63,805 nt of DNA from Thermoanaerobaculia bacterium (GTDB lineage: Bacteria; Acidobacteriota; Thermoanaerobaculia; Gp7-AA8), in assembly GCA_036506455.1 (NCBI GenBank), contig DASXRT010000062.1:1-63805 (forward strand). Direction: 5' to 3'. This document shows positions 28,739-45,695 of this stretch, in pieces (positions within the stretch are counted from its first letter, which is position 1; every line of letters starts with the position of its first letter). The notes beneath the pieces were generated by a model. That model worked only from the letters and a program-made list of their open reading frames with translations. It was not told where the DNA came from and searched no databases. Made by a program: the position numbers and the translations under genes.

Positions 28739-28807
28739 GCAGACGCAGTGGACTCAAAATCCACCGCCCTTTGGGGCATGCCGGTTCGAGTCCGGCCTCG
28801 GGCACCA
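28721..28807 (+). tRNA. tRNA-Leu (anticodon CAA), class II with long variable arm, CCA encoded
   Basis: GCCCGAG acceptor pairs with CTCGGGC. Anticodon stem-loop GTGGA-CTCAAAA-TCCAC. Variable arm CGCCCTTTGGGGCAT. T-arm GCCGG-TTCGAGT-CCGGC. 3' ACCA. Confidence 0.9.
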
Positions 28808-28821
28808 TTCACAGATCAACT

Positions 28822-31260
28822 ATGCGCCGAACTCTCATCGCCGTTCTCGTTCTGCTGAGTACTTCATCGACGTTTGCGGCGTCGAAACATTTCATCCTCT
28901 CGCCGCAGCGGCTGCTCAATGAACAGGAGCAGGCCGACCTCGCGAAGCGCGGACTGATCATCGAGCGTCCGCTGTCGAACGGCCGCTATCTCGTCCGCCT
29001 CGCGGACGACGCGACGGTCGCTGACGACGATCCGCGCATTCGCGCGCTGGGTCCATTGACCGCAAACTTGAAACTGCATCGCACCGCGGTTCGGGAAGTG
29101 GCCAGCGGCCGGCCGGTCGCGCGTCTCGATGTCTTGTTCCAGGATGACGTCCCGTTCGAAAGCGCGAAGGCCGCGATCGAAGCGGCCGGCGGCTCGTTGG
29201 CCGAGCCGCTGCAGCATGACTTTCATGAGCCGAGGCGCATCTCGGCGCGGATCGCGTCGTCGTCGGTCTCGACACTCGCCGGCGATGAGCGTGTCCTGCT
29301 CGTCTATGGGCCGAGGAATCTGCAGAAGGAGTCGGAGAATGCCACGGCGGCGGTGGAGTCGAACGTCACGCCGCTCTTCTCAGGGCCGTACAACCTCAGT
29401 GGCCAGGGCGTGGCGCTTTCGTACTTCGAGTTTGGACAAGCCGATGCGGCGCATCCGGAGTTCGGCGGACGCCTGACGACGCACATCACCGCTCAAAGCG
29501 ATCGCGATCATGCGACGCACGTTGCCGGGACGATGATCGCGTCGGGAATCGATCCAAAGGCGAAGGGGATGGCTCCCGCGGCGACGCTTCACGAATTCGA
29601 CGCGAACGACGACAACTTTCTCGATCTCAAACAGAGCCTGCCGGCCTTTTCCGCACTCGCCGACAACAACTCCTGGGGATACATCCTCGGCTGGTGTAAC
29701 CACGGAAGCCAGTGCTCCGGGAAGTGGGTGTGGGAAGACAACGAGCTCTACTACGGTGGATACGACGCGCTGGTGACCGCGCCGCTGGACAAGATCACTC
29801 GCACGGCCGGCGTCCTGATGGTTCACTCGGCCGGCAACGACGCCAACAAGCTCGGGCCGGTGTCTGCTCCCTTCGCTCACTCTCATTTCAACGACGATTG
29901 GTCGAAAGTCATCGATGGCTACTGCTATTCGGCTGATGGCAGCGGCAACGATTGCCCGGTGCCGACATGCACCGCGGGATCGAGCTTCTGCGAGACCACA
30001 CGCCATCCACAGATCACGAGTCTCCTGCCGGCGCCGTGGGTCTCGATCGGTCTGACCGCGGGGGCGAAAAATGTGATCGCCGTCGGGGCCGTCGACTCGT
30101 CGAAACAGATCGTGGCATTCAGCTCGCGTGGCCCGACGCGCGACGGGCGGGTCAAGCCCGATCTCGTGGCCAAAGGGATCAACATCTATTCGACGATACC
30201 GGGCAGCAGCTACGGGACGATGAGTGGGACGTCGATGTCCTCTCCGGTCGTGACCGGGACTACGGCGCTTCTCGTCGAACAGTGGCGCCGCACGTTCGGT
30301 GGGGCGAATCCGACTCCTGCGACGCTGAAGACGCTGATGATCGCCACAGCCGACGATCTCGGGAACGTCGGTCCCGATTACACGTACGGCTTCGGTCTGT
30401 TGAACGCAAAAGCGGCGGTGGACACGATCCTGGCCGATGCTGGGCAGGGGCGCCGCATCAAGATCGACAAGGTCGCGACGGGCGAGAAGATCGAGATGCC
30501 GGTCACGCTCAATGCAGCGCAAACGCTGCGCGTGGTCCTCGGCTGGAGCGATCCCGAGGTGCTGACTTTCCCCGATCCGAGTTACGAGGGCGATCCGCTC
30601 GCTGTAGCCACGCTGGTCAACGACCTCGATGTGAAGGTGGTCGATCCGAGCGGCGCGGATGTCCTTCCGTATGTGCTCAGCCGCGACAATCCATCCCAGC
30701 CGGCCACGCGCGGCGTCAACCGAGTCGACAACACCGAAGAGGTCGAGATCGCCGGGGCCGTCGCGGGAACCTACAAGGTCGTCATCACGGGGACGAGCGT
30801 CACGGCGAGCTCACCGCAGACCTTCGTCCTGGTGACGAACGGGGAGCTCGGAGTGGCGGCATTGCCGTGCACCGACGTGTTCGAGCCGAACAATTCGGCC
30901 GATACGGCGTATGGAAACCTCGTCTCCACGCAGACGCTCGACGGCCGGACGTGCGAGCAGGGCGACGTCGATTACTTCAAGTTCCTGGTCGACCGGCCGG
31001 GGACGGTCAGCGTAAGAGTCACAGCGAGCGACACACCTGTTCGCGTCACGCTCACCAGTAATGCCACGGCGGCGGTCACAGTCGATGTTGCGGCCGGTGC
31101 GACGCAAACGGTCAGCACGACGTACAGCGGCACGACAGCGACGACGTTCTTCGCACGCGTCGAGCCGATCGGAACGATCGGCAGCGCGGCTCGGTACACG
31201 ATCACGCCGACGTTCCCATACGCGGCCCATGCGCGGCGGCGTGCCGCCGCGCGACATTGA
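28822..31260 (+). CDS. secreted subtilisin-like (S8) serine protease with C-terminal PPC-type domain
   Basis: ATG 28822 gives the signal peptide MRRTLIAVLVLLSTSSTFA. Motifs DHATHVAGT and GTSMSSPVVTG. C-terminal PNNSADTAY...GDVDYFKF. The longer track ORF reads through the tRNA and is rejected. Confidence 0.85.
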   Translation: MRRTLIAVLVLLSTSSTFAASKHFILSPQRLLNEQEQADLAKRGLIIERPLSNGRYLVRLADDATVADDDPRIRALGPLTANLKLHRTAVREVASGRPVARLDVLFQDDVPFESAKAAIEAAGGSLAEPLQHDFHEPRRISARIASSSVSTLAGDERVLLVYGPRNLQKESENATAAVESNVTPLFSGPYNLSGQGVALSYFEFGQADAAHPEFGGRLTTHITAQSDRDHATHVAGTMIASGIDPKAKGMAPAATLHEFDANDDNFLDLKQSLPAFSALADNNSWGYILGWCNHGSQCSGKWVWEDNELYYGGYDALVTAPLDKITRTAGVLMVHSAGNDANKLGPVSAPFAHSHFNDDWSKVIDGYCYSADGSGNDCPVPTCTAGSSFCETTRHPQITSLLPAPWVSIGLTAGAKNVIAVGAVDSSKQIVAFSSRGPTRDGRVKPDLVAKGINIYSTIPGSSYGTMSGTSMSSPVVTGTTALLVEQWRRTFGGANPTPATLKTLMIATADDLGNVGPDYTYGFGLLNAKAAVDTILADAGQGRRIKIDKVATGEKIEMPVTLNAAQTLRVVLGWSDPEVLTFPDPSYEGDPLAVATLVNDLDVKVVDPSGADVLPYVLSRDNPSQPATRGVNRVDNTEEVEIAGAVAGTYKVVITGTSVTASSPQTFVLVTNGELGVAALPCTDVFEPNNSADTAYGNLVSTQTLDGRTCEQGDVDYFKFLVDRPGTVSVRVTASDTPVRVTLTSNATAAVTVDVAAGATQTVSTTYSGTTATTFFARVEPIGTIGSAARYTITPTFPYAAHARRRAAARH

Positions 31261-31293
31261 TCTAGAACAATGCGGATATTGTCCTAGCACGAT

Positions 31294-32949
31294 ATGCAGA
31301 GAGCCACACTGCTGTTGCTGGCGATCGTCATCGTTCCTGTTCCGTGCGCTGGGCACGCGGTCGTCGACGTCGGTGTCCACTTCGCCGCGCCTGAGTTTGT
31401 CGCGCGCGGGTCGACGGCCTCGATCGAGGTTGTCGTCGATGCCCTCGCGTACGATTCCGCGTATGGCGTCACACTGCAGATTCAGATCAACGACGCCCGC
31501 GCTTCGTCCGGCGATCCGATCTGGCGCTGCATCAGCGGGCCCGAGCTGATTCAGTGTTCAGCGGAAGAGCTGACAGCGGGACCGCATCCGGTGCGCGTCG
31601 ATGTGAAGGTGCCCGCGAGTGCATCGGAGTTTCGCGCGCGGGCGACCGTCGATTCGCTGGGCAGCTTCGATCCGAATGGCGCGAACAATAGCGCCACTGT
31701 GGAGAGCCGGACGTTCGACCCCGCGCGCTGCCAGCAGGCTCCTCCACAGATCGCCGGCGATTTCGAGTGGACTGCTTCGCCGGGCGCGATCACGTACGAG
31801 ATCTTCTACGGGATCGACGGCGAAACGCCGCACGTCGCCGGCAAGACGAGCGACACTCGTGCGCCGCTGAACGTTCCGGGTGGAGAAGTGACATGGTTTG
31901 TGCGTGCGCGATTCGACGGTTGTCCGGCGTTGGACAGTGCCAGATCCAGCTTTCCATCGTTCGGCGCGCCGATGAAGCTCGCTGTAGTGACGTCGTGGCG
32001 CGACGGACTCATGGCGCCTCAGTCAGTGGCCATTTACAGAAGCGGCATCGTCGTCGCCGATCCGCCATCAAGGCGGCTCTACACGTTCGACCCAGCCGGC
32101 CCCGCTCTCGCGCCGCTAAGACTGTTCGGCGACGTCGTCAGCGATCCGCCGGCATTCGACGGCGGGATCACGACCGGACCGGGCGACTATCTGTACGACG
32201 CCGATCGCAGTACGCATTCTGTGCGTCTCGCCGATTCGACGCAGTACATGTACTTCGTGGCTGGACAAGCGAGAGCCGGTGGCACTGTCGACGGCCAGGG
32301 CCTGATGGCACGCTTCGACGCGCCGGCCGCGATCGCGGTCGATGCGAAAGGTTCGTTCTTCATCACCGACAGCGTCAGTCACGTCGTGCGGCGCATGGCG
32401 TACAGCAGCGCCAAATTCGATTTCACCGTGACCACATATGCCGGACTCGCAGGATCCAGCGGATTCGCCGACGGCGGTGGCTCGGCCGCCCGCTTCAACG
32501 ATCCAGCCGGCGTGGCGATGGACGCAGCGGGCAACGTTCTCATCGCCGATCGGGGCAATCACGTCATCCGACGAATCGCCGCTGACGGGACCGTGTCGAC
32601 GATTGCTGGTGCCGCCGGTGTGGCTGGCCATCGCGACGGCGTCGGTGCCAGCGCATTGTTCAACCGGCCGTACGGCGTTGCTCTCGATCCCTGGGGCAAT
32701 CTCTACGTGACTGAAGAAGGCAATCATGACGTTCGCAAGATCGCGCCGAATAGGCGCGTGACCACGGTTGCCGGTGATCCCCAAACGCCGGGCCGCAGCG
32801 ATGGTGTCGGCGCGGCGGCGCACTTCGAGCATCCCGCGCTGCTGGCGATCGCGTCCGACGGGACGCTATGGATTCCCGACGCCGGTAATGGTCGTCTGCT
32901 GCGCGCTGCGCCATCGACGGGCGAGCGGCGCCGGGCCGTGAGACGTTGA
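31294..32949 (+). CDS. secreted NHL-repeat beta-propeller protein
   Basis: Signal-like N-terminus. Repeated D(S/R)xNHV(V/I)RR(M/I)A, FNxPxGVAxD and GNLYVT blocks. Confidence 0.75.
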   Translation: MQRATLLLLAIVIVPVPCAGHAVVDVGVHFAAPEFVARGSTASIEVVVDALAYDSAYGVTLQIQINDARASSGDPIWRCISGPELIQCSAEELTAGPHPVRVDVKVPASASEFRARATVDSLGSFDPNGANNSATVESRTFDPARCQQAPPQIAGDFEWTASPGAITYEIFYGIDGETPHVAGKTSDTRAPLNVPGGEVTWFVRARFDGCPALDSARSSFPSFGAPMKLAVVTSWRDGLMAPQSVAIYRSGIVVADPPSRRLYTFDPAGPALAPLRLFGDVVSDPPAFDGGITTGPGDYLYDADRSTHSVRLADSTQYMYFVAGQARAGGTVDGQGLMARFDAPAAIAVDAKGSFFITDSVSHVVRRMAYSSAKFDFTVTTYAGLAGSSGFADGGGSAARFNDPAGVAMDAAGNVLIADRGNHVIRRIAADGTVSTIAGAAGVAGHRDGVGASALFNRPYGVALDPWGNLYVTEEGNHDVRKIAPNRRVTTVAGDPQTPGRSDGVGAAAHFEHPALLAIASDGTLWIPDAGNGRLLRAAPSTGERRRAVRR

Positions 32950-33749: not shown

Positions 33750-35188
33750 GGAAGGTGCTCGTCGCCAATCGCGGCGAGATCGCGGTGCGCATCGCTCGCG
33801 CCTGCCGCGAATCGCGTATCACTTCCGTGCTCGCGTATTCTGAAGCCGACGATACGCGTTATGTGCGCCGCTTCTTCGACGAGAGTGTGCCGATCTCGTC
33901 GTATCTCGACGTCCATGCCGTGATCGATGCGGCGCGGCGCTCCGGCGCCGATGCCATTCATCCCGGGTATGGCTTTCTCTCCGAGCGCGCGGAGCTGGCT
34001 GCCGCATGCGCTGACGCGAAGATCGTGTTCATCGGACCGAACGCGTCGTCGATCGCCGCCATGGGTTCAAAAGCCGGCGCCCGCGCTCTGATGCAGCGCC
34101 TCGGCGTCCCCGTGGTCCCCGGCTATGACGGCGAAGATCAGAAAGACGCGACGCTTGCGGCCGAGGCGAAGCGGATCGGTTTCCCGGTGCTGATCAAGGC
34201 GTCGTCGGGCGGGGGCGGGAAGGGGATGAAAATCGTTCGCGACGCGAGCGAGCTGCAGCCGCAGATCGAATCGGCGCGGCGCGAGGCCAAGAAAGCATTC
34301 GGCGCCGATCGTCTGCTGATCGAGAAGTACATCGAGGAGTCGCGTCACGTCGAAGTGCAGATCTTCGGCGATTCGCAAGGCGAGATCGTGCATCTCTTCG
34401 AACGCGACTGCTCGATTCAGCGGCGATATCAGAAGGTGGTCGAAGAGTCGCCGGCACCCGATTACTCCGAAGAGCTGCGGCAGAGGATGACGGCTGCCGC
34501 GATCGCCGCCGCACGCGGCGTCAAGTATGAGAACGCCGGGACGGTCGAGTTCATCGTCACACCCGAGCGCGACTTCTACTTTCTCGAGATGAACACGCGC
34601 CTACAGGTCGAGCATCCGGTGACGGAGCTTGTCACCGGTGTCGATCTCGTGCGCGGACAGCTCGAAGTCGCCTCGGGGAAGCCGATGCCGTGGAAATCAG
34701 TCGAGCAGCGGGGCCACGCGATCGAAGTCCGCATTTATGCCGAAGATCCCGACGATCGCTTTCTTCCCCAGAGCGGCCGCATCGATTACCTGGTCGAGCC
34801 ATCCGGTCCGGGCGTGCGTGTCGACTCCGGTGTGATGCAGGGAAGTGAGATCGGTCTGCACTTCGATCCGATGCTGGCGAAGCTGATCGCGTATGCACCG
34901 ACGCGCGACGCCACGATCGATCGCCTCGACCGCGCCCTCCGCGATTACCTCATCCTTGGCGTCACGACAAACGTCTCATGGCTGCGCCACGTCGTGACCC
35001 ATCGCGCTTTCCGCGAAGGGAAAGTGAGCACGCGATTCCTCATCGATCACGAAGCCGATCTACGGAGAGAAGTGCCGGAGGTCGTCCCTCTGATCGCAAA
35101 CGCACTGGCCCAGCACGACCGACAACCGACAACCAACAACCGACAACGCTCCATATGGGACACACTCGGAACATGGGGTCGCACATGA
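33737..35188 (+). CDS. biotin carboxylase domain protein (acyl-CoA carboxylase alpha type) lacking a BCCP/biotinyl domain
   Basis: KVLVANRGEIAVRI, an ATP-grasp block (GGGGKGMKIV) and EMNTRLQVEHPVTE. The ORF ends at residue 483 inside a CAACCGA heptamer array. No lipoyl/biotinyl AMKM motif. Confidence 0.8.
   Translation: MGKLRKVLVANRGEIAVRIARACRESRITSVLAYSEADDTRYVRRFFDESVPISSYLDVHAVIDAARRSGADAIHPGYGFLSERAELAAACADAKIVFIGPNASSIAAMGSKAGARALMQRLGVPVVPGYDGEDQKDATLAAEAKRIGFPVLIKASSGGGGKGMKIVRDASELQPQIESARREAKKAFGADRLLIEKYIEESRHVEVQIFGDSQGEIVHLFERDCSIQRRYQKVVEESPAPDYSEELRQRMTAAAIAAARGVKYENAGTVEFIVTPERDFYFLEMNTRLQVEHPVTELVTGVDLVRGQLEVASGKPMPWKSVEQRGHAIEVRIYAEDPDDRFLPQSGRIDYLVEPSGPGVRVDSGVMQGSEIGLHFDPMLAKLIAYAPTRDATIDRLDRALRDYLILGVTTNVSWLRHVVTHRAFREGKVSTRFLIDHEADLRREVPEVVPLIANALAQHDRQPTTNNRQRSIWDTLGTWGRT
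35116..35148. repeat. orphan tandem heptamer array (CGACCGA CAACCGA CAACCAA CAACCGA CAACG) with no complementary arm
   Basis: Read directly. It lies in the last 25 codons of the biotin carboxylase ORF. Confidence 0.7.
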
Positions 35189-36288
35189 AACGCATCGCAC
35201 TGCTCCTGTTCGCGTTCGCTGACACAGCCTTCGCCGACACTCTGCTGGTCCTCAACAAGGCTGATGCGACGCTCGCCTTCGTCGACGCGTCGTCATTGCA
35301 AGTGATCTCGAAGATCCCGACAGGCGAAGGCCCTCATGAGGTGGCGACCGATGGCCGAATCGCGCTCGTGGCGAACTACGGCACCGGCCCGAATCCGGGA
35401 AGCACGGTGTCGATCGTCGATGTCGCCACGAGAAAAGAACGGAAACGTCTCGCGCTGCCCGGACTTCTGCGGCCTCACGGAATGTATGCGATCGGATCGC
35501 ATATCTACTTCACCGCCGAAGGCAGCCGCGTCGTTGCGCGCTACGACACTCCTTCATCGTCGATCGATTGGATCAGCGGCACCGGGCAGGACGTCACACA
35601 CATGGTCGTAGTGATGCCGGGAGAGAAGAAGCTATACACCGCAAATATCGGATCCGACAGTGTGAGCGTGATCGATCTCAGCGGTGCGCCACGACGCACG
35701 GGACTCAAGCACATCGCCGTCGGAAAAGGACCGGAAGGAATCGATCTTTCGCCTGACGGACACGAGCTGTGGGTGTCCCATGGCGGCGAGGCATCGCTCT
35801 CCGTCATCGATACCGCGACCGACAAAGTGCTGCGTGTGGTGAGCACGGGAACGAAGTTGGCGAACCGTGTGAAGTTCACGCGCGACGGAAAACGCGCGCT
35901 CGTCTCCGATCCCGGTGCGAATGAAGTGATCGTTCTCGACGCGGCAACGAAAGAGGTCATCAAGCGTGTGACGATGGCGGAGGGTCCGTCGGGAATCCTC
36001 ATCGCGCCCGACGGCAAGCGCGCGTTCGTCGCTTGCAGCGGTGCGGGCATCGTGCAGGTGCTCGATCTCGATTCGCTCTCGATCACCGGCTCGGTGGCCA
36101 CCGGCAATCAACCTGACGGCATGGCTTACGCGCCGCGTTTGCCCAGCGCCTCCGGCGCGCGCACGCGTCCGGCTTCGGCTCGGGATAGAAGCGCGTTCTC
36201 TGACTCGGATCTCGTGGAAACGGGCCGCCATCTTGATGCTGCACAACACGTGAAGAGTTGCGCGGCCTGCCAAGAGAGTTTGACATGA
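35185..36288 (+). CDS. secreted YVTN/YncE-like beta-propeller repeat protein
   Basis: ATG 35185 (ATGA overlap with the upstream stop) gives the signal MKRIALLLFAFADTAFA. Repeated GxGPxGI/EV..SPDG blocks. The C-terminal tail after DGMAYAP looks non-native. Confidence 0.75.
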   Translation: MKRIALLLFAFADTAFADTLLVLNKADATLAFVDASSLQVISKIPTGEGPHEVATDGRIALVANYGTGPNPGSTVSIVDVATRKERKRLALPGLLRPHGMYAIGSHIYFTAEGSRVVARYDTPSSSIDWISGTGQDVTHMVVVMPGEKKLYTANIGSDSVSVIDLSGAPRRTGLKHIAVGKGPEGIDLSPDGHELWVSHGGEASLSVIDTATDKVLRVVSTGTKLANRVKFTRDGKRALVSDPGANEVIVLDAATKEVIKRVTMAEGPSGILIAPDGKRAFVACSGAGIVQVLDLDSLSITGSVATGNQPDGMAYAPRLPSASGARTRPASARDRSAFSDSDLVETGRHLDAAQHVKSCAACQESLT

Positions 36289-36338
36289 CGTGAGACCCTC
36301 GATGAAGAAACCGCGGCGCGGAGTTTCCCAGAGAAACA

Positions 36339-36465
36339 GTTGACGCACCACCAGTGATCGATTGGTACCAGAGGCCATCCAGGAGTGATCGGGAGTAAGC
36401 ATCGGAATCGCCTAGCGCGAGCGGCGTGGATGCTGCCGCTTCATCGCCGCGCCGATCCGGGCTTG
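36339..36465 (+). repeat. 127-bp direct repeat, copy R1 (probable IS91-type element end)
   Basis: Differs from 40217-40343 at 5 positions (my by-eye count). The transposase zinc-finger fragment follows downstream. Confidence 0.8.
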
Positions 36466-36517
36466 CCGTATATCGCCCGCGGAATCCTCAATCGACTCCG
36501 TTGTACGGCCCTGCTCG

Positions 36518-36760
36518 ATGAGCGGTACGAGGCGGTCAAAGGGGAGAGGAGCGTTTCGAAACGCGTTTCGGCTTCTCGCGAGGATTCGTCGATGGAGCGG
36601 TGAACCGCTATCTCGATTGCGGCATTCTGGAGAATGGGTTCGCGCGCGTCCGCTGCGGGGATTGCCATAAGGACATGCTCGTGGCCTTCTCGTGCAAGGG
36701 ACGAGGGATCTGCCCAATGCGGCGACGCCAAACGCGCCGCGCAGATGGCGGCGCGGCTGC
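36518..36760 (+). pseudogene. N-terminal fragment of an IS91/IS801-family (Y2, rolling-circle) transposase, zinc-binding region only, frameshifted
   Basis: ERFETRFGFSRGFVDGAVNRYLDCGILENGFARVRCGDCHKDMLVAFSCKGRGICP matches the family N-terminal Zn-binding motif. The continuation CGDAKRAAQMAARL is in another frame. No catalytic Y2 domain follows. Confidence 0.5.
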
Positions 36761-37067
36761 GTCGGGCCAAATTTCCTGGCGATCGCGTCGATCCCGCGCG
36801 TCTGGTGCGGAAGGTCACGAACGACGAGCCCCGCCGCGAGTGAGTACCCGCATTGGGGGCAGTCACTCTGCTGCGCCGGCGCAGTTTGCTTCCGCAACCA
36901 GGATACGCTCGCCGGTGAGAAGGTGCTCGGTTGGAGCAAGCAGCCGGAGCCGTACCGGCCTTACACCGCGCTCTCGACGCCGCGCATTTCCAGCGCTCCA
37001 GGCCCACGACCGAAGTGTCCCTCGCCCCGCTTGCGGGGCAGAAGGCACTCTCGATCTCGTTTTGCTC

Positions 37068-39977
37068 TTACGTGTCGCGGTGGAACAGGTACTTGGACGT
37101 GCACGGAAGCCACGTGCGGAATGCGAGCAATCGAATGCTGCCGGCGTCCGGGATTTGATCAAAGGCATTCGTAAGCGATCCGCGGGCGTTGTCCGGGAGT
37201 TTGTCGAACCACGTCCGCAGGTCGATGTCATCTCCATTCGCGAGCTCGACCTGCAGGGCGAGAAGTGGTCCGAGGCGCGGGTGGCCCGTAAAGAACGCGA
37301 GTTGGCTGATGCAGATCCTGTATGGGCTGGACGCGTCGGCGGACACGAACGTCTGTTGATCGACGTCGGGCAGGCTGGCCTTCAGCAATCGGTAGATGTT
37401 GACGAAGCGAATCAGTGCCCGCGGCTTGTCGCTGAGCAGCGATTTGACACGGTCCACGAACAGCGCCTCATCGCGCGTGATCCGCAACGGGTCGGGATTC
37501 TCCTCCGCTCGCCGGACCGCCGCCTGAAAACCGTCGGCCGCGTTTGCGATCTCAATACGGTCCGGTAGGGCCTGCGCGCCGCGCAAAGCCTCCTGCGCTT
37601 CTACCTGCCGGCTCTTCGGCTCGGGAGCGGCAGTATTGCCGAGAAGAGATTTAACAACCGCAGCGCGATGGGCCGGGTCGATGGGGCTCATCCAGATCGG
37701 AATCTGGAAGATCTTCTCGAGATAGTCGCCAACCGTCGCACGAGCGCCCCCCTCCTCGTTTTCTCCGCCGAACAGATATTGATGCTTCTGGCGCAGACAT
37801 TTCTCGATCCATCGGGGATCGACCGCCACGACGCAGACAAAGAGAGGGAACGCGAGAAGAAGGTGAACGGCCTCCAGGACCTTCAGGACCGTGTCGACAT
37901 CGCACCGATCGAGATCGTCGATGTAGAGGACGATCCGGTTCAGGAGCGGAGGCCGGCCTTGTTTCTGCGGAGAGCTCCATTCTTCGTTTGCGGCGGCGAT
38001 CAGATCGGAGAGCCGCTCGAAGTCGCGGCGCACGAGCGCGAGGAAGCTGAGCTGCTTGCGGTACTCATCGGTGCCTGACCGGTCCTTGATGAACTCGTCG
38101 AGCAACAGGGCGCTCGATAGTTGTTTCAGCCGCGCCTCAACCTCGCGAAGCTTGACCTCGGCAGACGATCGCTTCGCCACCTTGGCGTCGAGATCCTTTG
38201 TCTGGTCCGCAAGACTTCGCACCGCGGACGCGACCGCCGCTTCGCGGTTGCGCAGGATCGCCTGCTGCTCCTCGAGCGTTGCGCGGAGCGCTGCAACCTT
38301 CGCGGTCCACTCGGCCTGAACCTCCGCCTGCTTTTTTTCCAGCTCGGCGCGACGCTTTGCGATTCTTTTTGCCTCTTCTTCCTCGAGTTGGCGAAGCTTC
38401 GCCTCGAATTCCTTGCGCCGCTCACGGATGAACCCGACGATCCGGGTCATGCTGGCGCTGAGGGCTGCAAAGCCACCGACGAGTGTTGCCCAGGCGCCCG
38501 TCAACCAGTGCGTGAGCCACGCCACGACCGGTGCGACCAGGAGCAGCGCCAGCACAACTGCGCCGCGAACCGAGAACAGCCGCGCGCCAAACGTCCGCCA
38601 GTCCGTGATGCCGCGCAGGAGTGTCTCGCCAGCTGCGCGGACGTTGGCAACGACGGGCGAATCGGTGAGTTGACGTACCGCGACAGCGACTGCGGACCCG
38701 GCGTCGGGTGCGTTTGCGTCCTGCGCAACCGCCTGGATGGCAACGTCGAGCTCTTTGCGTGCCTTCTCGGCCTGCGAGCTCGAATCCTCGAGCTCTTTCG
38801 CCTTCGTGTCGACATCCTTGCGAGCGGAGACGACGTCTTCCTTTGCGCGCTCCACCTCACCGCGGGCGACGACGACCTGTTCCTGTGTTCGCTCGAGTGC
38901 TGTCGCGGCGCCGGCCAGTTCGACTTCTGCCCCGCTCAACTGGAGCAGCACTTCCGCGCGGCGTTGCTCGAGCTCCGTGTCCTTTGCGCCGGGAAGGACC
39001 CGCAGATTGCGGAAGAGGTGATCGACGAGGCTGGCGACGAGGTTGCCTTCGTTGTAGTGCCACGCGTTGAACTCGACCTGGGCGATCTGGCCGTAGTAGA
39101 GCGGAGCATCGGCGGCGGTCGCCTTGCCTGCATCGCGCTTGTCAATCCATGTGCTGACCCGGCCCTGTTCGCGCTCGGCGAGTCCCCAGATTTTCTTGCG
39201 GAGATGGCGCATGAAAAATGACTTGCCGGATCCCCACGGGCCGAACACGCCGATGGATAGAGGTGTCTCGGTACGAGTCGAAGCGATGAGAAGTGCCAGC
39301 GCGTCGACAGTGCGATCGATGTCGAGAAGGTCTTTCTCGGTGTATACATCGGCGCTGAAGGACGTGAGAGGGACCGGCGCGGCGCGGTCGGCGTAAGTGC
39401 TCCAGTACGGTTTCTCGGACACGTACGACTTGGCCATGAAACCACCAAAGGCGCGGCACCAGGCCAGACGGTCGATCCCGAGATCCTCGAAATCCTTGAC
39501 GTGCCAGTCGCGCAGAATCGGATACGCCGCCGCAAGATGCCGGACATCGAGTGCGGGGCCGTCGTCGGGTATCTGGCCGTTGTCGAGTGCGGCCGCGATC
39601 GTCTGCGCCTCTTCAATGGCCCGTCGCGCCGACACGGAGGTCGCCAGCTCAGTTGGTGTCGATTGAAGACTGTGCAGCGACGCCTCGTTGTAGGAACGAC
39701 TGCGACTCTCCGCGATCTTCTTCGCGGTAACGCCGTGGCGCTCGAGCTCCGCCTTGAGCCAGACCGACAAAGTGTCCGTGCCCGTGAGCATGCCGACCAG
39801 GAGCGATGTGAACGACAGCGCCGTCGAATCGCGCGCGTTGACCAACGCGGCCCGGGCGAAGACCCGCGCCAGGTCGGGCGTGACGGAGAGCTTTACACGC
39901 TTCGGAGTCAGGAGTTTGCCCCCGCCCTCCTGGTCGTAGGTCAACGTCACGACGGCTGGCGCTGTGGGTTCATTCAT
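37068..39977 (-). CDS. KAP-family P-loop NTPase with coiled-coil/2-TM/coiled-coil insert and an unassigned 210-aa N-terminal domain
   Basis: Walker A GPWGSGKS (res 246-253; nt 39219-39242). NAWHYN block. Walker B-type VLYIDDLDRC (res 683-692). Between them are charged heptad-like segments flanking hydrophobic helices at about res 467-489 and 494-517. Confidence 0.85.
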   Translation of the reverse strand: MNEPTAPAVVTLTYDQEGGGKLLTPKRVKLSVTPDLARVFARAALVNARDSTALSFTSLLVGMLTGTDTLSVWLKAELERHGVTAKKIAESRSRSYNEASLHSLQSTPTELATSVSARRAIEEAQTIAAALDNGQIPDDGPALDVRHLAAAYPILRDWHVKDFEDLGIDRLAWCRAFGGFMAKSYVSEKPYWSTYADRAAPVPLTSFSADVYTEKDLLDIDRTVDALALLIASTRTETPLSIGVFGPWGSGKSFFMRHLRKKIWGLAEREQGRVSTWIDKRDAGKATAADAPLYYGQIAQVEFNAWHYNEGNLVASLVDHLFRNLRVLPGAKDTELEQRRAEVLLQLSGAEVELAGAATALERTQEQVVVARGEVERAKEDVVSARKDVDTKAKELEDSSSQAEKARKELDVAIQAVAQDANAPDAGSAVAVAVRQLTDSPVVANVRAAGETLLRGITDWRTFGARLFSVRGAVVLALLLVAPVVAWLTHWLTGAWATLVGGFAALSASMTRIVGFIRERRKEFEAKLRQLEEEEAKRIAKRRAELEKKQAEVQAEWTAKVAALRATLEEQQAILRNREAAVASAVRSLADQTKDLDAKVAKRSSAEVKLREVEARLKQLSSALLLDEFIKDRSGTDEYRKQLSFLALVRRDFERLSDLIAAANEEWSSPQKQGRPPLLNRIVLYIDDLDRCDVDTVLKVLEAVHLLLAFPLFVCVVAVDPRWIEKCLRQKHQYLFGGENEEGGARATVGDYLEKIFQIPIWMSPIDPAHRAAVVKSLLGNTAAPEPKSRQVEAQEALRGAQALPDRIEIANAADGFQAAVRRAEENPDPLRITRDEALFVDRVKSLLSDKPRALIRFVNIYRLLKASLPDVDQQTFVSADASSPYRICISQLAFFTGHPRLGPLLALQVELANGDDIDLRTWFDKLPDNARGSLTNAFDQIPDAGSIRLLAFRTWLPCTSKYLFHRDT

Positions 39978-40125
39978 CTTGTCTGGCCTCGCAAAACAGA
40001 ACTAGTGCTCTCGCACAGCGTGTAAGTCTGCCGTACGCAAACCAATCACAATTGATTGCTGAACTGACCATGGAGTGCGCGGCAGCAGCTCAGGCCCTAC
40101 CCTCGATTTTGGAACTCCTAACTTA

Positions 40126-40147
40126 GGCCTCGGGCCTCGGGCCTCGG
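40126..40147. repeat. orphan tandem heptamer array GGCCTCG x3
   Basis: GGCCTCGGGCCTCGGGCCTCGG read directly, upstream (minus sense) of the KAP gene. Confidence 0.6.
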
Positions 40148-40216
40148 ACCCACCACCCTCAGGTCCGCGGGTTTGCTGGCACGAACGACATCGCCCGTTC
40201 AGCCAGCGCGGTGATC

Positions 40217-40343
40217 GTTGACGGACCACGAGTGATCGATTGGTACCAGAGGCCATCCAGGAGTGATCGGGAGTAAGCATCGGAATCGCCTAGCGCGAGC
40301 GGCGTGAATGCTGCCGATTCACCGCCGCGCCGATCCGGGCTTG
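40217..40343 (+). repeat. 127-bp direct repeat, copy R2 (solo)
   Basis: Same orientation as R1. It abuts the truncated M23 gene. Confidence 0.8.
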
Positions 40344-40349
40344 AAGTCT

Positions 40350-40856
40350 ATGATCCGAAGCACGGCCACAATCAAGGCAATCCGAAGGGACTGCAGGCGT
40401 ATGCATTCGACTTCGTCCACGACGCCGATCACAACGGCGTCGGCGAACCCAATCAGCCCGTTCTCGGCCGCGCGCGGCGGCCAAGTGTACGCGTTCGTCG
40501 AATCGGAATCAGGAAATAGCTGGGGCAGCAAGGATCCGTGCAAGCCAGGCGTCGGCAATTACCTCGTCATCGATCACGGCGAGGGCACATACGGCGTCTA
40601 CTGGCATCTCGCGCCGAACGGAGTGCTCGTGAAACTCGGCGACACGGTGAAGACCGGCGATCACATCGCGACCTCCGGCAACACCGGCAATTCCAGCACG
40701 GCTCACATTCACTTCGATGTGCGCACCGGTTGGCATCTCCAGTACACGTGCAGCAATCTGTCGGAGAGTCCGAGCGTCAAGCTGAATTTCCAGGACAAGA
40801 ACCATTCACGCTGGAGGCCGCACGCGGGAGATACGCTGGCGTCGAATAATCAGTAG
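40350..40856 (+). pseudogene. 5'-truncated, frameshifted M23-family metallopeptidase gene
   Basis: AYAFDFVHDADHNGVGEPNQPVL is in one frame. AARGGQVYAFVE..GNYLVIDHGEGTYGVYWHL..GDHIATSGNTGNSSTAHIHFDV is in another. There is no signal peptide or N-terminus, and the coding sequence begins at the R2 boundary. Confidence 0.55.
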
Positions 40857-40873
40857 ATGGGTGATGGCGAAGG

Positions 40874-40909
40874 ATTCCTTGATGGAAGGGGATCCTTCGC
40901 TTCGCTCAG
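40874..40909 (+). terminator. hairpin after the M23 remnant
   Basis: GCGAAGGATTCC-(loop)-GGGATCCTTCGC, a 12-bp stem with one mismatch. Confidence 0.35.
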
Positions 40910-41405
40910 GATGACACTCGTCACGATGCGATCCAGTTGATCAGCGCTCCCCTCCACCGAACGAGCCTCCGCGGGCAACGATGACGTAACCGCCGGCGAT
41001 GCATGCGATGATCACGGCGAGCTTCACCGTGTCGATGATCGTTCCGAGCTGGAACGGCTTCATCCCTCTGCGGAAGCGGCGTCCTCTGATCAGATTCGAT
41101 GCGCCGAGAACGATGTCCCAGAGGATGCGCGCGGCCTTTTCGAAGCCGCTCCACACGCCGAATCCGAGAAGCGTGCCGAAGAATGAGAGGCCGAGGCGAG
41201 CTTCGCGCGGCGCATCGCGCGCGAGCGGCCAGGTGAAGGAGTGGTCGACATGGCCGCAGAAGGAAGTTCCAAGCCGAAGCGATTCCCATGAAGAGCGGCG
41301 CGCTCGCTAACCGAAGCTCTGCAGCCTAGTACACGCCGCAATCGTCCAAAGCGATCGAGGTGACATCGAGGTCGGCGCCACGAACCCGCACCGAGAGAGT
41401 CGCTA

Positions 41406-41653
41406 ACGAAGATGGCGAACCGCGTGAAGTTCACGCGCGACGTCAAGCGCGTTCTCATCTCCGATCGAGCCGCGAATGATGTGGTCGTTCTCGACGTGAC
41501 AACGAAAGAAGTCATCAAGCGACTGACGATGGCAGCAGGTCCTCGATCTCGACACGCTCTCGATCACCGGCTCGGTGGCCACCGGCAATCAACCCGACGG
41601 CATGGCTTACGCGCCGCGTTTGCCCAGCGCCTCCGGCGCGCGCACGCGTCCGG
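41406..41653 (+). pseudogene. decayed second copy of the 3' end of the beta-propeller gene
   Basis: 41406-41540 is about 84% identical to 35851-35987. About 74 nt are deleted relative to 35988-36061. 41542-41653 differs from 36061-36172 at 3 of 112 positions. Weaker protein-level similarity continues upstream to about 41355. Confidence 0.65.
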
Positions 41654-42414
41654 TGACGCCGCACAGGATCAGCAGCGTCACGACATATGGCGTCGCCAAC
41701 AACAAGTGAAAGGCGATGCCGCGATTGGCCGCTTGAAGGGCGTACTGCAGCGCGGCGGCGATCCCGAATAGCGCCGTTCCCGCAACAGCGCCCCGGACGG
41801 TCCATCGACCGAAGATCACGACCGAGAGCGCGATGAAGCCGCGGCCCGCGGTCATGTTCTCGGCGAATCCGTTCGACAGGTTGAGCGCAAGGTGCGCGCC
41901 GGCGAGGCCGACGAGCAGTGCTTCGATCGCCAGAGCGATCCACCGATATCGCGCCGGTGACCATCGCGCCGCGCGCATCGCATCCGGGTTTTCGCCGGCG
42001 GCGCGGATGCGCAGTCCGATCGTCGTCGACCACAGAAGAATCGCCAGCGCGATCGGCACGACGATCCAGGCGATCGGCGTGATGACGTCCAGCGTCATGG
42101 GGGGCGGCGCCGACGATCGCATCTCGCGATAGGCGAAGCCGGTCGCGCCGAGGACGAGTAGGTTGATGGCGGTGCCGGTGACGATCTGATCGGCGTCGAG
42201 GATGATCGTGAAAACACCGAAGAGCAGCGCGACGGCCCATCGCCGCGGTGACGCCGGTCCATACGCCTCCGAACGTCGCGCCGAACGCTGCGGCGAGCAT
42301 CATCCCCTCGATGCCGAGGTTGATCATGCCGCTGCGCTGCACAACGAGCTCGCCTTCGACGGCCAGGAGAAGTGGAGTCGATGCGACGATCGCGAGAAGC
42401 AGGATGCTAAGCAC
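41607..42414 (-). pseudogene. ABC transporter permease (BMP/nucleoside-sugar type) with one frameshift near 42234
   Basis: The N-terminal part (MLSILLLAIVASTPLLLAVEGELVVQRSGMINLGIEGMMLAAAFGATFGGVWTGVTAAMG) and the C-terminal part (VALLFGVFTIILDADQIVTGTAINLLVLGATGFAYREMRSS...) are colinear but offset by 1 nt at GGGCC (42234-42238). This could also be an assembly error. Confidence 0.6.
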
Positions 42415-43360
42415 TCCTCGGTCTCCACGACACGGCGATGATCACGAGAATCACGACCGCTTGTCCGAACGTGGCGATCGCCGCAGGGATGTCTGCAGCG
42501 CGCTGCAGCTCGCCGGCGCCGGTCGTCAGCGCGGCGAAGAAGAATGCCGACGCAATACTCCCCAGTGGATGCAGTGCTCCCAAAAGGGCGACAGCGATTC
42601 CGGAGTAACCGTAGCCGGCGGCGAAACGCTCGAACAGCCGGTGCGTCACCCCGAGAAGCTCGATGCCGCCGGCGGCCCCGGCGATCGCGCCGGAGATGGC
42701 CATGGCGCGCACGAGCTGCGCGGCGACGTTGACGCCGGCAACGCTCGCCGCATGGGGATTGAATCCTGTCGCGCGAAGACGCAGGCCTTCGGTCGTCCGG
42801 TACAGCATCCACCAGCTCGCGATTGCGATGATGATCGACAGGGGCACGCCGGCGTGAACGCTTCCGATCGCCGGCAGTGATGCCGCGGCAGGGTCGCTCT
42901 GCGGATAGCGCGCGCTCGTCTCCCGCAGCGGTCCGTTCACGCACCAGCCGAGCAGATGGATCGCGATGAAGTTGAGAAGAATGGTGGTGAGCACTTCCGG
43001 CGCATTGCGCCACAGGCGCATGGCCGTGGCGATCGAGGCCCACGCGGCGCCGGCGATCGCCGCGGCGAGCAACGCCACGACGGCACCGTAGCGCGACGCG
43101 ATCAGCGCCGCGATCGCACCGACGATGAACTGCCCTTCCGCTCCGATGTTCCAGGCGCCGCCGCGAAAGGCGATCACCACGCTCAAACCGGTCAGGAGCA
43201 GCGGTACCGATTTCAACAACGTTCCTTCGATCGCGAATCGTGATCCGACGGATCCTTCGAGAAGCGTACGTAAGACGAGAGCAGGCGAGTGACCGAACAG
43301 CGACGCGGCGATCGCCAGCAGGACAATCGCTCCGATACAGGCGAGAATCGAGCGCGTCAC
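42407..43360 (-). CDS. ABC transporter permease (BMP/nucleoside-sugar type)
   Basis: 317 aa, polytopic, WNIGAEGQF motif. Overlaps its neighbours by 4-8 nt. Confidence 0.85.
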   Translation of the reverse strand: MTRSILACIGAIVLLAIAASLFGHSPALVLRTLLEGSVGSRFAIEGTLLKSVPLLLTGLSVVIAFRGGAWNIGAEGQFIVGAIAALIASRYGAVVALLAAAIAGAAWASIATAMRLWRNAPEVLTTILLNFIAIHLLGWCVNGPLRETSARYPQSDPAAASLPAIGSVHAGVPLSIIIAIASWWMLYRTTEGLRLRATGFNPHAASVAGVNVAAQLVRAMAISGAIAGAAGGIELLGVTHRLFERFAAGYGYSGIAVALLGALHPLGSIASAFFFAALTTGAGELQRAADIPAAIATFGQAVVILVIIAVSWRPRSA

Positions 43361-44640
43361 GCCACGCCTGCCATCAGAGTGGCGACGCGCGATGCCGCTT
43401 CATCAGGCGTCATACGCACGCTCAGCCGGCCGCGATAGATGACGTGGATGCCGTCGGCGAGCGCGAAAGCCTCATCGAGATCCGACGTGATGAGCAGCAC
43501 CGCGGCGCCGGAGTTGCGGAGTTGCTCGTGCACGAAGCGCGTGGCCTCGATGTCGAGCCCGCGCGTCGGCTCCGCGGCGATGATCAGCTCCGGTTTTCGA
43601 TCGAGCTCCCGCGCGAGGACGACCTTCTGCTGATTGCCGCCCGAAAGCTCGCCGGCGAGCTGCAGCGGGCCGCTCGCCTTGATGCCGTACAGATCGATCA
43701 GTGTTTCCGCGCGCCGTCGTGCTTCATCCGGACGCCAGCGCGCGCTGCCGAGCGCAATGTTCTCGGCAATCGTCATCTCTCCGATGATTCCGTAGCGCGT
43801 CCGATCCTCGGGGATGAAAGCGGTGCGGACTCTCGCCGATCGTCGCACTTCATCCGCGAGCTCACGCTGGCCGTTTCCGGCAACACCGACGACGGCGATG
43901 ATCTCGCCGGGGTGAATGAGGAGAGGTGCGCTGATCAGCGGTGTGGCGGCGCGCTTTAGCGCGCCGACCGGCGGGCTGAAGCCCGCCGCTACACCCACCA
44001 TGGCTTCTGCGATCTGCTGGGCAGTCATGCCGCGCGCGGGCGTATCGGCGACAATCTTGCCGCGGCGCATGATCACCAGCCGCTCCGCGACTTCCAGGAC
44101 TTCGGGAATCTTGTGCGTGATGAAGACGACGGATGTTCCGAGTCTTCGAATCAGATGAAAGAGCTCCGCCGACTCGAGCGGCGTCAGCACCGACGTCGGC
44201 TCGTCGAGGATCAGCAGCTCCGGTTGCGCGGCGACGGCTTTGATCAGCTCGAGCTTCGCGCGCTCGCCCACGCTCAGTTCGGCGGCGCGCCGGTTCACCA
44301 CGGGTAACTCGATGCCGCTGGCGTGGATCGTCTCCACGGCAGCGCGATCGAGGTTCGTGATGATCCGCAGCCCGCGTTCGCGGACGAGCGCCAGGTTCTC
44401 CGCGATCGTGAAGTGCGACACGAGCGCGAAGTGCTGGTGCACCATGCCCACGCCGCGCGGCGCGTCGATCGTGCCGCTGTCTGCGCCGATCTCACCGGCG
44501 GCAACGCGCATGAGCGTCGTTTTGCCGGCGCCGTTCTCACCGATCAGACCGATGATCTCGCCCGGCGCAATCTCCAGCGAGACGTCGTCGACCGCGGGGA
44601 TGGCGCCGAACGATTTCGTTATGTGAGTGAGTCGTAACAT
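43357..44640 (-). CDS. ABC transporter ATP-binding protein (tandem ABC domains)
   Basis: ATG 44640 (MLRLTHITKSFG). Walker A GENGAGKTT. Signature LSVGERAKLE. Second domain GVAGNGQREL and LSGGNQQKV. The track's N-terminal extension translates the hairpin repeat. Confidence 0.85.
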   Translation of the reverse strand: MLRLTHITKSFGAIPAVDDVSLEIAPGEIIGLIGENGAGKTTLMRVAAGEIGADSGTIDAPRGVGMVHQHFALVSHFTIAENLALVRERGLRIITNLDRAAVETIHASGIELPVVNRRAAELSVGERAKLELIKAVAAQPELLILDEPTSVLTPLESAELFHLIRRLGTSVVFITHKIPEVLEVAERLVIMRRGKIVADTPARGMTAQQIAEAMVGVAAGFSPPVGALKRAATPLISAPLLIHPGEIIAVVGVAGNGQRELADEVRRSARVRTAFIPEDRTRYGIIGEMTIAENIALGSARWRPDEARRRAETLIDLYGIKASGPLQLAGELSGGNQQKVVLARELDRKPELIIAAEPTRGLDIEATRFVHEQLRNSGAAVLLITSDLDEAFALADGIHVIYRGRLSVRMTPDEAASRVATLMAGVA

Positions 44641-44720
44641 GGTCGCCGGTCGTGGGTCGTAGGTCGTGGGGGCCTTTTCGCGCTGAGGCCCCCACGACCT
44701 ACGACCCACGACCTACGACC
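44641..44720. repeat. heptamer-array hairpin, unit GGTCGTR (4 units, 16-nt loop, 4 complementary units), copy 1
   Basis: GGTCGCCGGTCGTGGGTCGTAGGTCGTGGGGG-CCTTTTCGCGCTGAGG-CCCCCACGACCTACGACCCACGACCTACGACC. It occupies the whole spacer between the SBP and ATPase genes. Confidence 0.85.
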
Positions 44721-45695
44721 TTAGAATTTACCGCGCGGCACCTTCAACGATCCGCTGCGAATTTCCCGCTCCAATCGTGCAACCTCCGCCACCGTCCCCG
44801 GCGCGATCGTTCCCTTCAGCTTCTCGTTCCAAACGATCGAGACGATTCCTTCCTTCATCCCGAGAGCCTGGATCCGCGGCACGAACTTGTGATCGCGCAC
44901 GAGCGTGGCGATCCGGACGAACGCCGCGGGCACATCGAGGACGGCCGAGGCGACGATGACGTCGGGGGCGAGGTCGTTCTGGTTCTTGTTCGAGCCGAAG
45001 CAGCGCACCTTGCGCTCCGAGCAGGCCTGAAAGACGCCGCGCCCCGCTTCGTTGGCCTGATGAAAGATGAAGTCGCAGCCGGCGTTGATCAGCGACAGAG
45101 TCGCCAGCTTCGCCGCGCCGACATCATCGAAGTTGCCGGTGTAGACCTCCTTGACTTCGAACGCCGGCTTCACCGACTGCGCACCCGCTTTGAACGCGAG
45201 GAACGTCGATGCGATCGACGGCAGATTGATGCCGCCGATCACTCCGGCCTTTCCCGTCTTCGATTCGCGTGCGGCGATGACGCCGAGAAGATATGTGGCC
45301 TGTTCGAGCTCGAAGACCATCGGCGCGACGTTCTTCGCGACCGAACTTCCGGATGTTGTGATGAACACCGTGTTCGGGTATTGCTTGCCGGCGGCCAGGG
45401 CCGCGTCTTGAAACTCGAAGCCATGGCCGAACGCGAGATCGAATCCGCGCGCGCCGTACGAGCGGAAGCCCTCTTCGAACTCTGCCGGCGACTTCGTCTC
45501 CTGATGCGAGATCTCCGCACCGAGCTGCTGTTTGATCCGGAGCAGGCCTTCGTAAGCGATGGCGTTCCAGCCGTTGTCGTTGATGGAACCGGGCGTGAGG
45601 AGGCCGACCTTCAAGATTTTCGGTTGTCGGTTTTCGGTGATCGGTTGCTGACAGGCGAATGTGAGGACGGCAAACAACAGAACAGCACGTTTCAT
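44721..45695 (-). CDS. BMP-family ABC transporter substrate-binding lipoprotein (PnrA/Med-like)
   Basis: Lipobox LTFAC. GSINDNGWN and a periplasmic binding fold of 324 aa. Confidence 0.85.
   Translation of the reverse strand: MKRAVLLFAVLTFACQQPITENRQPKILKVGLLTPGSINDNGWNAIAYEGLLRIKQQLGAEISHQETKSPAEFEEGFRSYGARGFDLAFGHGFEFQDAALAAGKQYPNTVFITTSGSSVAKNVAPMVFELEQATYLLGVIAARESKTGKAGVIGGINLPSIASTFLAFKAGAQSVKPAFEVKEVYTGNFDDVGAAKLATLSLINAGCDFIFHQANEAGRGVFQACSERKVRCFGSNKNQNDLAPDVIVASAVLDVPAAFVRIATLVRDHKFVPRIQALGMKEGIVSIVWNEKLKGTIAPGTVAEVARLEREIRSGSLKVPRGKF

Follow-up and report, generated by a model that had tools for sequence, protein, structure and literature searches.

The window analyzed here, a stretch of 63,805 nucleotides (nt) from a Thermoanaerobaculia bacterium (contig DASXRT010000062.1), carries a gene for a KAP-family NTPase on its reverse strand. 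The open reading frame (ORF) at 37068–39977 (−) has an ATG start and a stop codon at 37068–37070, and it encodes 969 amino acids (aa). The KAP family of P-loop NTPases was reportedly described by Aravind, Iyer, Leipe and Koonin in 2004. The protein matched the KAP_NTPase profile (PF07693) in two stretches with a score of 96.4 bits (cut-off 20) and an E-value of 2.4e-27, and its best stretch (residues 676–861) aligned to profile positions 148–285. A search of 5.8 billion proteins returned approximately 60 full-length homologues of 957–1042 aa with 42–65% identity. PF07693 is present in every one, and their sources are metagenomes or metagenome-assembled genomes (MAGs), including those of Nitrospira, Gemmatimonadaceae, Sorangium and Kofleriaceae. 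The KAP protein is 62% identical to a protein of a Vicinamibacterales genome. Judged by its sequence, 37068–39977 is an intact and conserved gene rather than an antisense ORF that arose fortuitously in GC-rich sequence, because of the Pfam score and the full-length homologues.

The Walker A motif (GPWGSGKS) occupies residues 246–253 (nt 39219–39242), exactly where the initial annotation had placed it, and the Walker B motif (LYIDDLDR) occupies residues 684–691 (nt 37905–37928). The spacing between the two is 438 residues, in agreement with the earlier estimate of approximately 430. Both motifs and the motifs flanking them are invariant across 27 relatives in the family alignment. The catalytic residues are intact in the same alignment, and binding and hydrolysis of NTP (nucleoside triphosphate) are predicted. 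The features by which membership in the KAP family was assessed, namely the profile match, the Walker motifs and the hydrophobic segments between them, are all present in the sequence, and the assignment to this family in the initial annotation is thereby borne out.

Architecture of the KAP protein

An AlphaFold2 model of the full-length protein, built with 27 relatives, has a mean pLDDT (predicted local distance difference test) of 71.8, and the modules of the protein are listed in Table 1. The model begins with a β-hairpin and a helical N-domain (residues 34–198), which are followed by the P-loop strand and helix. The two halves of the P-loop domain are separated by two helical arms with a hydrophobic hairpin between them. 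Arm 1 is composed of four predicted helices (residues 333–353, 357–421, 426–438 and 441–467). A hydrophobic helix is predicted at 470–491 and is followed by a low-confidence stretch (491–512), and arm 2 is a helix of 120 residues (513–632). The linker helix (639–668) and the Walker B strand (681–687) follow. The C-terminal domain is modelled with pLDDT values of 80–93 at residues 830–960, while the Pfam coverage ends at residue 861.

The insert between the Walker motifs had been described as charged and heptad-like. Heptad periodicity is significant at residues 335–421 (z = 3.9) and 575–632 (z = 2.3), and this part of the description stands; it does not hold for the E/K/R-rich residues 515–575, in which no significant heptad periodicity was detected. 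The latter segment resembles a single stable α-helix rather than a classic coiled coil. The block of arm 2 (residues 517–640) is exactly 124 aa long in 27 of 27 relatives, without any insertion or deletion and with a mean identity of 42%. Arm 1 measures 137–143 aa in the same relatives, with a mean identity of 32%. Mean identity to the family is 74–77% in both halves of the P-loop and in the linker helix, and the arms are the least conserved parts. Length-matched arms free of insertions and deletions would be expected of two helices that pair in the way of SMC or Rad50 arms. Taken together, the fixed lengths, the predicted helices and the partial heptads suggest that the arms of the KAP protein may pair in an antiparallel manner.

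Two hydrophobic helices had also been proposed within the P-loop domain. The first (TM1, residues 470–493) is strong, with a Kyte-Doolittle value of 2.4 against a family median of 2.33, while the second (TM2) is only marginal. Four Lys/Arg residues precede the hairpin and seven follow it, and the corresponding numbers in the family are 2–5 and 3–7. Such a distribution is in keeping with a hairpin whose two ends lie in the cytoplasm, and insertion into the membrane is predicted.

Residues 1–212 were modelled separately with AlphaFold2 (pLDDT 89.3, predicted template modelling score 0.86). In a Foldseek comparison of this model with the PDB, N-domains of Clp/Hsp104 proteins accounted for 25 of the top 25 matches, among them ClpC1-NTD, the MecA-bound ClpC N-domain, ClpD, ClpB and Hsp104. 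The best matches had a probability of 1.00 and target-normalised template modelling scores of 0.70–0.74. Residues 33–200 are thus predicted to adopt a Clp-N-like fold with a pseudo-twofold repeat of helical bundles, and two copies of an "acidic/Ala-rich helix ... (R)HL..A" pattern in this region resemble the Clp_N repeat. Residues 1–210 had been left unassigned in the initial annotation. This remains so for sequence methods, which find nothing, and no longer for structure, given the fold predicted by AlphaFold2 and Foldseek. Clp N-domains bind proteins or peptides, either substrates or adaptors.

A profile of the N-domain retrieved 319 clusters from 1.84 billion representative proteins, 171 of them at E ≤ 1e-10. 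Nine remote matches were checked, and all nine are KAP NTPases; a TIR domain stands ahead of the Clp-N-like domain in two of them and WD40 in one. Within this set, as far as the sequences indicate, the Clp-N-like domain occurs only with KAP NTPases.

The long-arm branch and the genomic setting

At least 566 loci related to the KAP gene were found among 185,579 species, each represented by one genome. They belong to Acidobacteriota, Actinomycetota, Bacteroidota, Myxococcota, Pseudomonadota, Planctomycetota, Chloroflexota and other phyla. The statistics of this branch were drawn from 80 retained loci. In 79 of these, a gap of 332–438 aa (median 385) between Walker A and Walker B is combined with a central hydrophobic segment, and the insert therefore defines a large "long-arm" branch of KAP NTPases and is not a peculiarity of one gene. 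The longest gaps in the branch (436–438 aa) are found in the subfamily of the window gene. The insert had been called unusually long, which is correct relative to the Pfam KAP model of 293 positions and incorrect within its own branch; the notion of a one-off architecture is not borne out, with so many loci sharing it among species representatives.

The N-terminal modules of the relatives vary, as judged by Pfam matches to their sequences. TIR_2 is present at the N-terminus in 14 of 79 relatives, and the TIR and ThsB_TIR models match three each. Other N-terminal modules in this set are PG_binding_1 (three relatives), WD40 (two) and a protein kinase (one), and one metagenomic relative has an N-terminal trypsin-like peptidase (Trypsin_2). 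It is typical of prokaryotic conflict proteins that TIR or protease modules are exchanged at the N-terminus of a conserved NTPase chassis. No description of a long-arm KAP architecture with a Clp-N-like domain was found in the literature searched, which did not cover the founding KAP paper of 2004. The long-arm sub-architecture is apparently distinctive, widespread and uncharacterised.

The KAP gene lies within a recently inserted segment flanked by duplicated target sequence. The empty site was provided by a metagenome contig (L091), whose DNA is approximately 85% identical to the window and whose β-propeller protein is 88% identical to that of the window. L091 is collinear with the window over the blocks given in Table 1 and is devoid of a segment of approximately 5.3 kb (roughly 36168–41404) that contains an IS91 transposase remnant, the KAP gene and an M23 peptidase gene. 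Inside this segment, two direct repeats of 135 nt bracket a 3.7-kb unit consisting of the IS91 remnant and the KAP gene. The repeat contains the upstream region and the first codons of the M23 gene, and its left copy encodes MLPLHRRADPGL..., which matches the start of the M23 peptidase. An outer duplication consists of the 3′ end of the β-propeller gene and a pseudogene fragment, which lies at the far edge of the inserted segment and matched residues 292–337 and 360–400 of the β-propeller protein with 74% and 93% identity, respectively, in a tblastn search. The description of the surroundings as a patch bounded by repeats and IS fragments was therefore accurate, being confirmed by the nested direct repeats, the IS91 remnant and the empty site in L091. 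No further transposase similarity was found in the window. The two halves of the β-propeller pseudogene (41406–41658, +) are 84% and 97% identical at the nucleotide level, and this unequal divergence hints at more than one recombination event.

Table 1 Modules of the KAP protein, repeats and transposase remnant around its gene, and blocks of the window collinear with the metagenome contig L091.
Feature	Residues	Position (nt)	Strand	Basis
β-hairpin	8–32	39882–39956	−	AlphaFold2
Clp-N-like double helical repeat (predicted)	33–200	39378–39881	−	AlphaFold2 and Foldseek
P-loop domain, N-terminal half including Walker A	215–330	38988–39335	−	Translation
Arm 1, helical and heptad-like, from the NTPase head to the hairpin	333–467	38577–38981	−	AlphaFold2
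Hydrophobic hairpin with a very short turn	470–517	38427–38570	−	Kyte-Doolittle
Arm 2, a single long helix leading back from the hairpin to the NTPase head	518–632	38082–38426	−	AlphaFold2
Linker helix and C-terminal P-loop half including Walker B	639–770	37668–38063	−	Pfam
Helical C-terminal part of the KAP module; variable loop around 780–830	771–969	37071–37667	−	Alignment
IS91 transposase remnant, N-terminal Zn-binding motif, ~40 codons		36600–36720	+	Zn_Tnp_IS91, 29.1 bits vs 26.3
135-nt direct repeat, left copy		36339–36473		Repeat search; 94% identical to the right copy
135-nt direct repeat, right copy		40217–40351		Repeat search
Outer duplication, left copy (3′ end of the intact β-propeller gene)		35850–36172		Repeats; collinear with L091
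Outer duplication, right copy (β-propeller 3′ pseudogene fragment, 22 codons missing)		41405–41653		tblastn
Block equivalent to L091 1–2005		34160–36167		
Block equivalent to L091 1893–2245		41536–41888		
Block equivalent to L091 2243–7411		45602–50850		
Block equivalent to L091 7429–8467		50942–51967		

The KAP gene is the sole reverse-strand gene between the forward-strand genes on its two sides. It is divergent from the M23 peptidase gene (40308–40856, +) and convergent with the IS91 remnant and the YncE-type β-propeller gene (34978–36288, +). The view of a stand-alone gene antisense to its neighbours is thus confirmed by the forward-strand neighbours and, among relatives, by the absence of a conserved partner: all-versus-all clustering of the ORFs within 7 kb of 81 loci yielded no conserved partner gene. 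The largest neighbour cluster in this analysis covers 10 loci at varying positions, and no two of ten close homologues share a neighbourhood. Nor was a conserved housekeeping operon, which the initial annotation had named as the finding that would speak against a defence role, found around the relatives.

Some close homologues are adjoined by transposases (IS110, IS21/Mu and DDE_5, and an IS91-family Y2_Tnp in Nitrospira), and others by an integrase or by caspase/CHAT genes. One context (P0008; JGI 3300056388) is a dense island of conflict genes, with genes for TCAD9, BubE, ThiF with Prok-E2_E, HTH with Peptidase_M78, and SUKH proteins, together with a DDE_5 transposase gene and a gene for a DUF6603 protein of 2518 aa. 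Distant long-arm relatives reside on large plasmids, including conjugative ones. On pBSY16_2 of Sinorhizobium sp. RAC02 (L094, 5168–16759), the KAP gene has a DUF4062 gene on one side and DarT-macro, SIR2 and integrase genes on the other. This island includes a DarTG-like pair of DarT and macro-domain genes, a pair of SIR2 and ATP-binding protein genes, and an SMI1/KNR4 gene. On pCC1099_2 of Rhizobium sp. CC1099 (L095, 6774–12522), a long-arm KAP gene for 1212 aa overlaps the start of a SIR2-family gene, a nucleoside 2-deoxyribosyltransferase gene comes next, and IS66 genes lie upstream of the KAP gene. The three genes may represent a three-gene KAP-SIR2 system. Overall, the context is that of an accessory, mobile and stand-alone gene, which is compatible with defence and does not establish it.

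Two unrelated genomes, that of the window and a Nitrospira MAG (L082, 13541–17474), have an IS91-family sequence shortly after the 3′ end of the KAP gene, in differing orientations. This shared linkage could reflect coincidence or repeated rolling-circle capture. A common IS91 element was rejected, as the Y2_Tnp proteins of the Nitrospira locus had no tblastn match anywhere in the window.

Upstream of the KAP gene, the GC content at 39900–40199 is 57–59%, compared with approximately 62% overall. The lower-GC upstream region that had been pointed out earlier is inside the local scatter and not distinguishable from it. A promoter and terminator scan detected no promoter-like sites, and the terminator-like sites were about as numerous as expected from shuffled sequence. 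An ORF at 40002–40280 (−) has no Pfam match and is probably spurious, given this lack of a match, its partial overlap with the duplicated M23 upstream sequence and the mostly opposite-strand genes upstream of close homologues. The β-propeller ORF has a C-terminus approximately 50 codons beyond those of its homologues of 305–320 aa (coverage 79–89%); its N-terminus also has a long extension of low complexity, and the gene probably starts and stops elsewhere than the longest ORF does. Its named relatives come from Thermoanaerobaculia and Acidobacteriota, and together with the Vicinamibacterales match of the KAP protein they suggest an acidobacterial source for the window.

Compared with L091, the window has a second extra segment of 3.7 kb (41889–45601) with ABC transporter genes. 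They form a Bmp/PnrA-type cluster with a substrate-binding protein (44721–45695), an ATPase (43357–44709) and a permease (42407–43360). A last permease gene (ORF 41515–42414) has approximately 55 genuine-looking codons, is degenerate thereafter and appears truncated. Farther away, genes for an S8 subtilase (897 aa) and an NHL-repeat protein (551 aa) at 28567–32949 are flanked by HMGL-like and enoyl-CoA hydratase/biotin carboxylase genes. This pair may be another insertion, in a cluster that otherwise resembles the leucine-catabolism type.

Comparison with characterised systems

The KAP protein shares with the KAP family (PF07693) the Walker A and B motifs, the inserted hydrophobic segments, the sporadic distribution and the linkage to mobile DNA. 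It differs in its insert of approximately 350 aa, in the two arms of approximately 120–140 residues with conserved length and in the predicted Clp-N-like domain. PifA of the F plasmid, which excludes phage T7, is a KAP-family protein that acts in defence at the membrane as a single protein (PMC13001434). Membrane depolarisation and nucleotide leakage were described for PifA, which is said to have no transmembrane helices (PMC13001434); in this respect it differs from the window protein with its hydrophobic hairpin. The KAP protein was not identified as PifA, as the PADLOC model aligned with residues 214–280 only (E = 2.7e-5).

Four KAP NTPases, EF_KAP and three from gut metagenomes, were shown to protect Enterococcus faecalis from phages in a manner dependent on Walker B (PMC13552941). 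These validated proteins are stand-alone, with an N-terminal transmembrane helix and a C-terminal region of approximately 320 aa of unknown nature (PMC13552941). Neither long paired arms nor a Clp-N-like domain is described for this group, and the distinction from the window protein is made on the basis of these descriptions (PMC13552941).

QatA is, like the KAP protein, a KAP-type ATPase, and it gave the best partial matches (E = 3.8e-16 in PADLOC and 1.6e-18 in NCBIfam). It was rejected as an identity, as the NCBIfam model NF041923 reached 66.8 bits where the equivalog cut-off is 600 and only the Walker B region aligned. The genes qatB, qatC and qatD are absent nearby, where the neighbours are the M23 peptidase, IS91 remnant, β-propeller and ABC transporter genes.

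Tmn, said to be a system of Gao et al. from 2020, had been named in the initial annotation as a KAP-type precedent. This classification was fair for the literature of 2022–23, in which Tmn was termed a KAP NTPase, and is now outdated, since its characterisers assigned it to a distinct YobI family in 2026 (PMC13001434). Tmn has an N-terminal P-loop domain, long C-terminal ARM/HEAT-like arms and a coiled-coil "proximal arm" (PMC13001434). Like the window protein, it is encoded by a single gene and has two hydrophobic helices within the P-loop domain, and it is anchored to the membrane, as is predicted for the window protein. In the latter, however, the P-loop domain itself contains the arms, and only approximately 200 aa form the C-terminal domain. 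Neither Tmn (PADLOC) nor YobI (Pfam) matched the KAP protein at E ≤ 1.

A geometric analogy exists with SMC, Rad50, MukB and JetC, in which matched long helices leave and re-enter a split nucleotide-binding head. These proteins have an ABC-type head and a hinge or zinc hook at the apex, whereas the window protein has a KAP P-loop and a predicted membrane hairpin at this position. An SMC/Rad50-like ATPase was rejected as an identity, as the matches to SMC, JetC, DndD and Rad50 (E = 9e-4 to 0.5) were restricted to the arms. A Foldseek search with the full-length model gave no significant match (best E = 0.013) and returned mostly long-helix proteins, with RdrA and Hsp104 fragments at low confidence. 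The profile of the whole family matched only coiled-coil proteins among the PDB sequences, and no structure of a close relative was found to have been solved there.

Proposed function and alternatives

We lean, with moderate confidence, towards the view that the KAP gene product is a single-protein, membrane-tethered NTP switch in conflict or defence, for instance against phages or mobile elements. A role of this kind is plausible in view of the TIR domains in 14 of 79 relatives and the two plasmid defence-island contexts. In the mechanism that we propose, the arms and both P-loop halves would be cytoplasmic, and only the tip of the hairpin would enter or cross the membrane, as suggested by the Lys/Arg residues at both ends of the hairpin. 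The antiparallel arms, in the manner of SMC or Rad50, would hold the NTPase head up to approximately 15–18 nm from the membrane, an estimate that assumes approximately 120 helical residues at 0.15 nm each. The Clp-N-like domain would bind a protein or peptide trigger or an adaptor, as Clp N-domains do, and this binding would alter the NTP state of the heads or their oligomerisation. Such an alteration could then be relayed through the length-matched arms to clustered hairpins, which would disturb the membrane and arrest the infected cell; PifA provides a KAP-family precedent for leakage. In the TIR-bearing relatives, the output may be the destruction of NAD+ instead.

Several observations weigh against this proposal. 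Regarding the N-domain, the E-values of the Foldseek matches were 4e-3 at best, Clp_N (PF02861) did not match at E ≤ 10 in any of 18 family members, the N-domain profile had no match among the PDB sequences, and hhalign gave a probability of 0.8% for the alignment with the N-domain of E. coli ClpB. Regarding the membrane end of the arms, pLDDT falls below 50 near residues 422–456 and 491–512, and TM2 (residues 496–517) is rich in Ala, Gly and Ser, with Kyte-Doolittle values of 1.45–1.57 (family median 1.58). PADLOC contains no model that covers the protein and gave partial P-loop matches only (QatA, PDC-S20 and PifA). No match was found among 50,697 phage records.

The genomic neighbourhoods add to these points. 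Several close homologues lie among ordinary metabolic genes. The 135 nearest neighbours at 79 loci contain 167 Pfam families, each at three loci or fewer; matches to defence families are few (type I methyltransferases at two or three loci and mad2 at four), and housekeeping neighbours include EF-Ts, RpiB and DeoC. An enrichment of defence genes around the homologues was thus not consistently seen with Pfam and PADLOC in these 135 neighbours, a survey without a random-locus control.

This lack of dominance by defence genes favours an alternative, which we consider unlikely, in which the protein is a membrane-proximal scaffold or an accessory of protein quality control. The Clp-N-like domain would then recruit substrates or adaptors, and the KAP NTPase would regulate the assembly or disassembly of a complex. 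Assembly and disassembly of complexes at the membrane is the general role first proposed for KAP NTPases (PMC13001434). The predicted fold of the N-domain would suit this function, no enzymatic effector is recognisable in the subfamily of the window gene (a further point against the defence proposal), and homologues are found near metabolic or envelope genes, such as those for the M23 peptidase in the window and for OmpA-like, Wzy_C and LysR regulator proteins. However, the sporadic and patchy distribution over the species representatives, the lack of a conserved neighbourhood and the absence of the inserted segment from the close relative L091 all argue against such a role, as do the TIR, trypsin-like and WD40 fusions in homologues and the defence-island contexts on plasmids.

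Somewhat less probable still is that the KAP gene is cargo that serves a mobile element, through exclusion of competing elements or through addiction or maintenance, perhaps having been moved by an IS91-type rolling-circle element. Within the unit bounded by the 135-nt repeats, the next feature downstream of the KAP gene is the IS91 Zn-finger remnant, and the Nitrospira orthologue is followed by an IS91-family Y2_Tnp and other transposases. Other homologues have transposases of the IS110, IS21/Mu, DDE_5 and IS66 types or integrases at their flanks, conjugative plasmids carry some relatives, and PifA is itself an F-plasmid KAP protein. On the other hand, the transposase family varies by locus, only 40 codons of IS91 are left in the window and their orientation is opposite to that in Nitrospira, and many homologues have no mobile-element gene nearby. 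A cargo function overlaps with the favoured role in conflict or defence and does not exclude it. An inactive relic in a decaying and rearranged region is very improbable: the IS91 remnant, the truncated permease gene and the β-propeller fragment are pseudogene debris around the KAP gene, but the ORF is uninterrupted for 969 codons and all family-invariant residues are kept, including those of Walker A, Walker B, FNAWHY and YLEKIFQIP.

A broader form of the defence proposal concerns the whole branch, and we put it forward only tentatively, as a rather doubtful extension. The long-arm branch may be a phylum-spanning family of single-protein immune sensors, in which a Clp-N-like domain would serve for recognition of an invader or a damaged protein, an NTP-driven change in the split P-loop head would be passed on by an SMC-like antiparallel relay of approximately 15 nm, and the hairpin would act as the effector, with the TIR-, protease- and WD40-tipped cousins providing other outputs.

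KAP NTPases were reportedly put forward as conflict proteins in 2004. Their experimental validation has only just begun (PMC13552941), and little is understood so far about defences associated with the membrane (PMC13001434). As a defence candidate, a KAP gene in a mobile patch would not surprise a specialist; what is distinctive is the combination of length-locked arms, a predicted membrane apex and a Clp-N-like input domain. With at least 566 loci, the long-arm branch offers a large and testable design that consists of a predicted Clp-N-like input, a split P-loop head, length-matched arms and a hairpin, and in its cousins a TIR domain forms the very N-terminus and, where a Clp-N-like domain is detectable, precedes it. 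If the protein is an immune device, it would represent a new way to couple cytoplasmic sensing with the membrane and would add a family that is missed by the current defence-finding profiles. If it is not, the branch would clearly exemplify the grafting of an SMC-like arm into an NTPase of non-ABC type.

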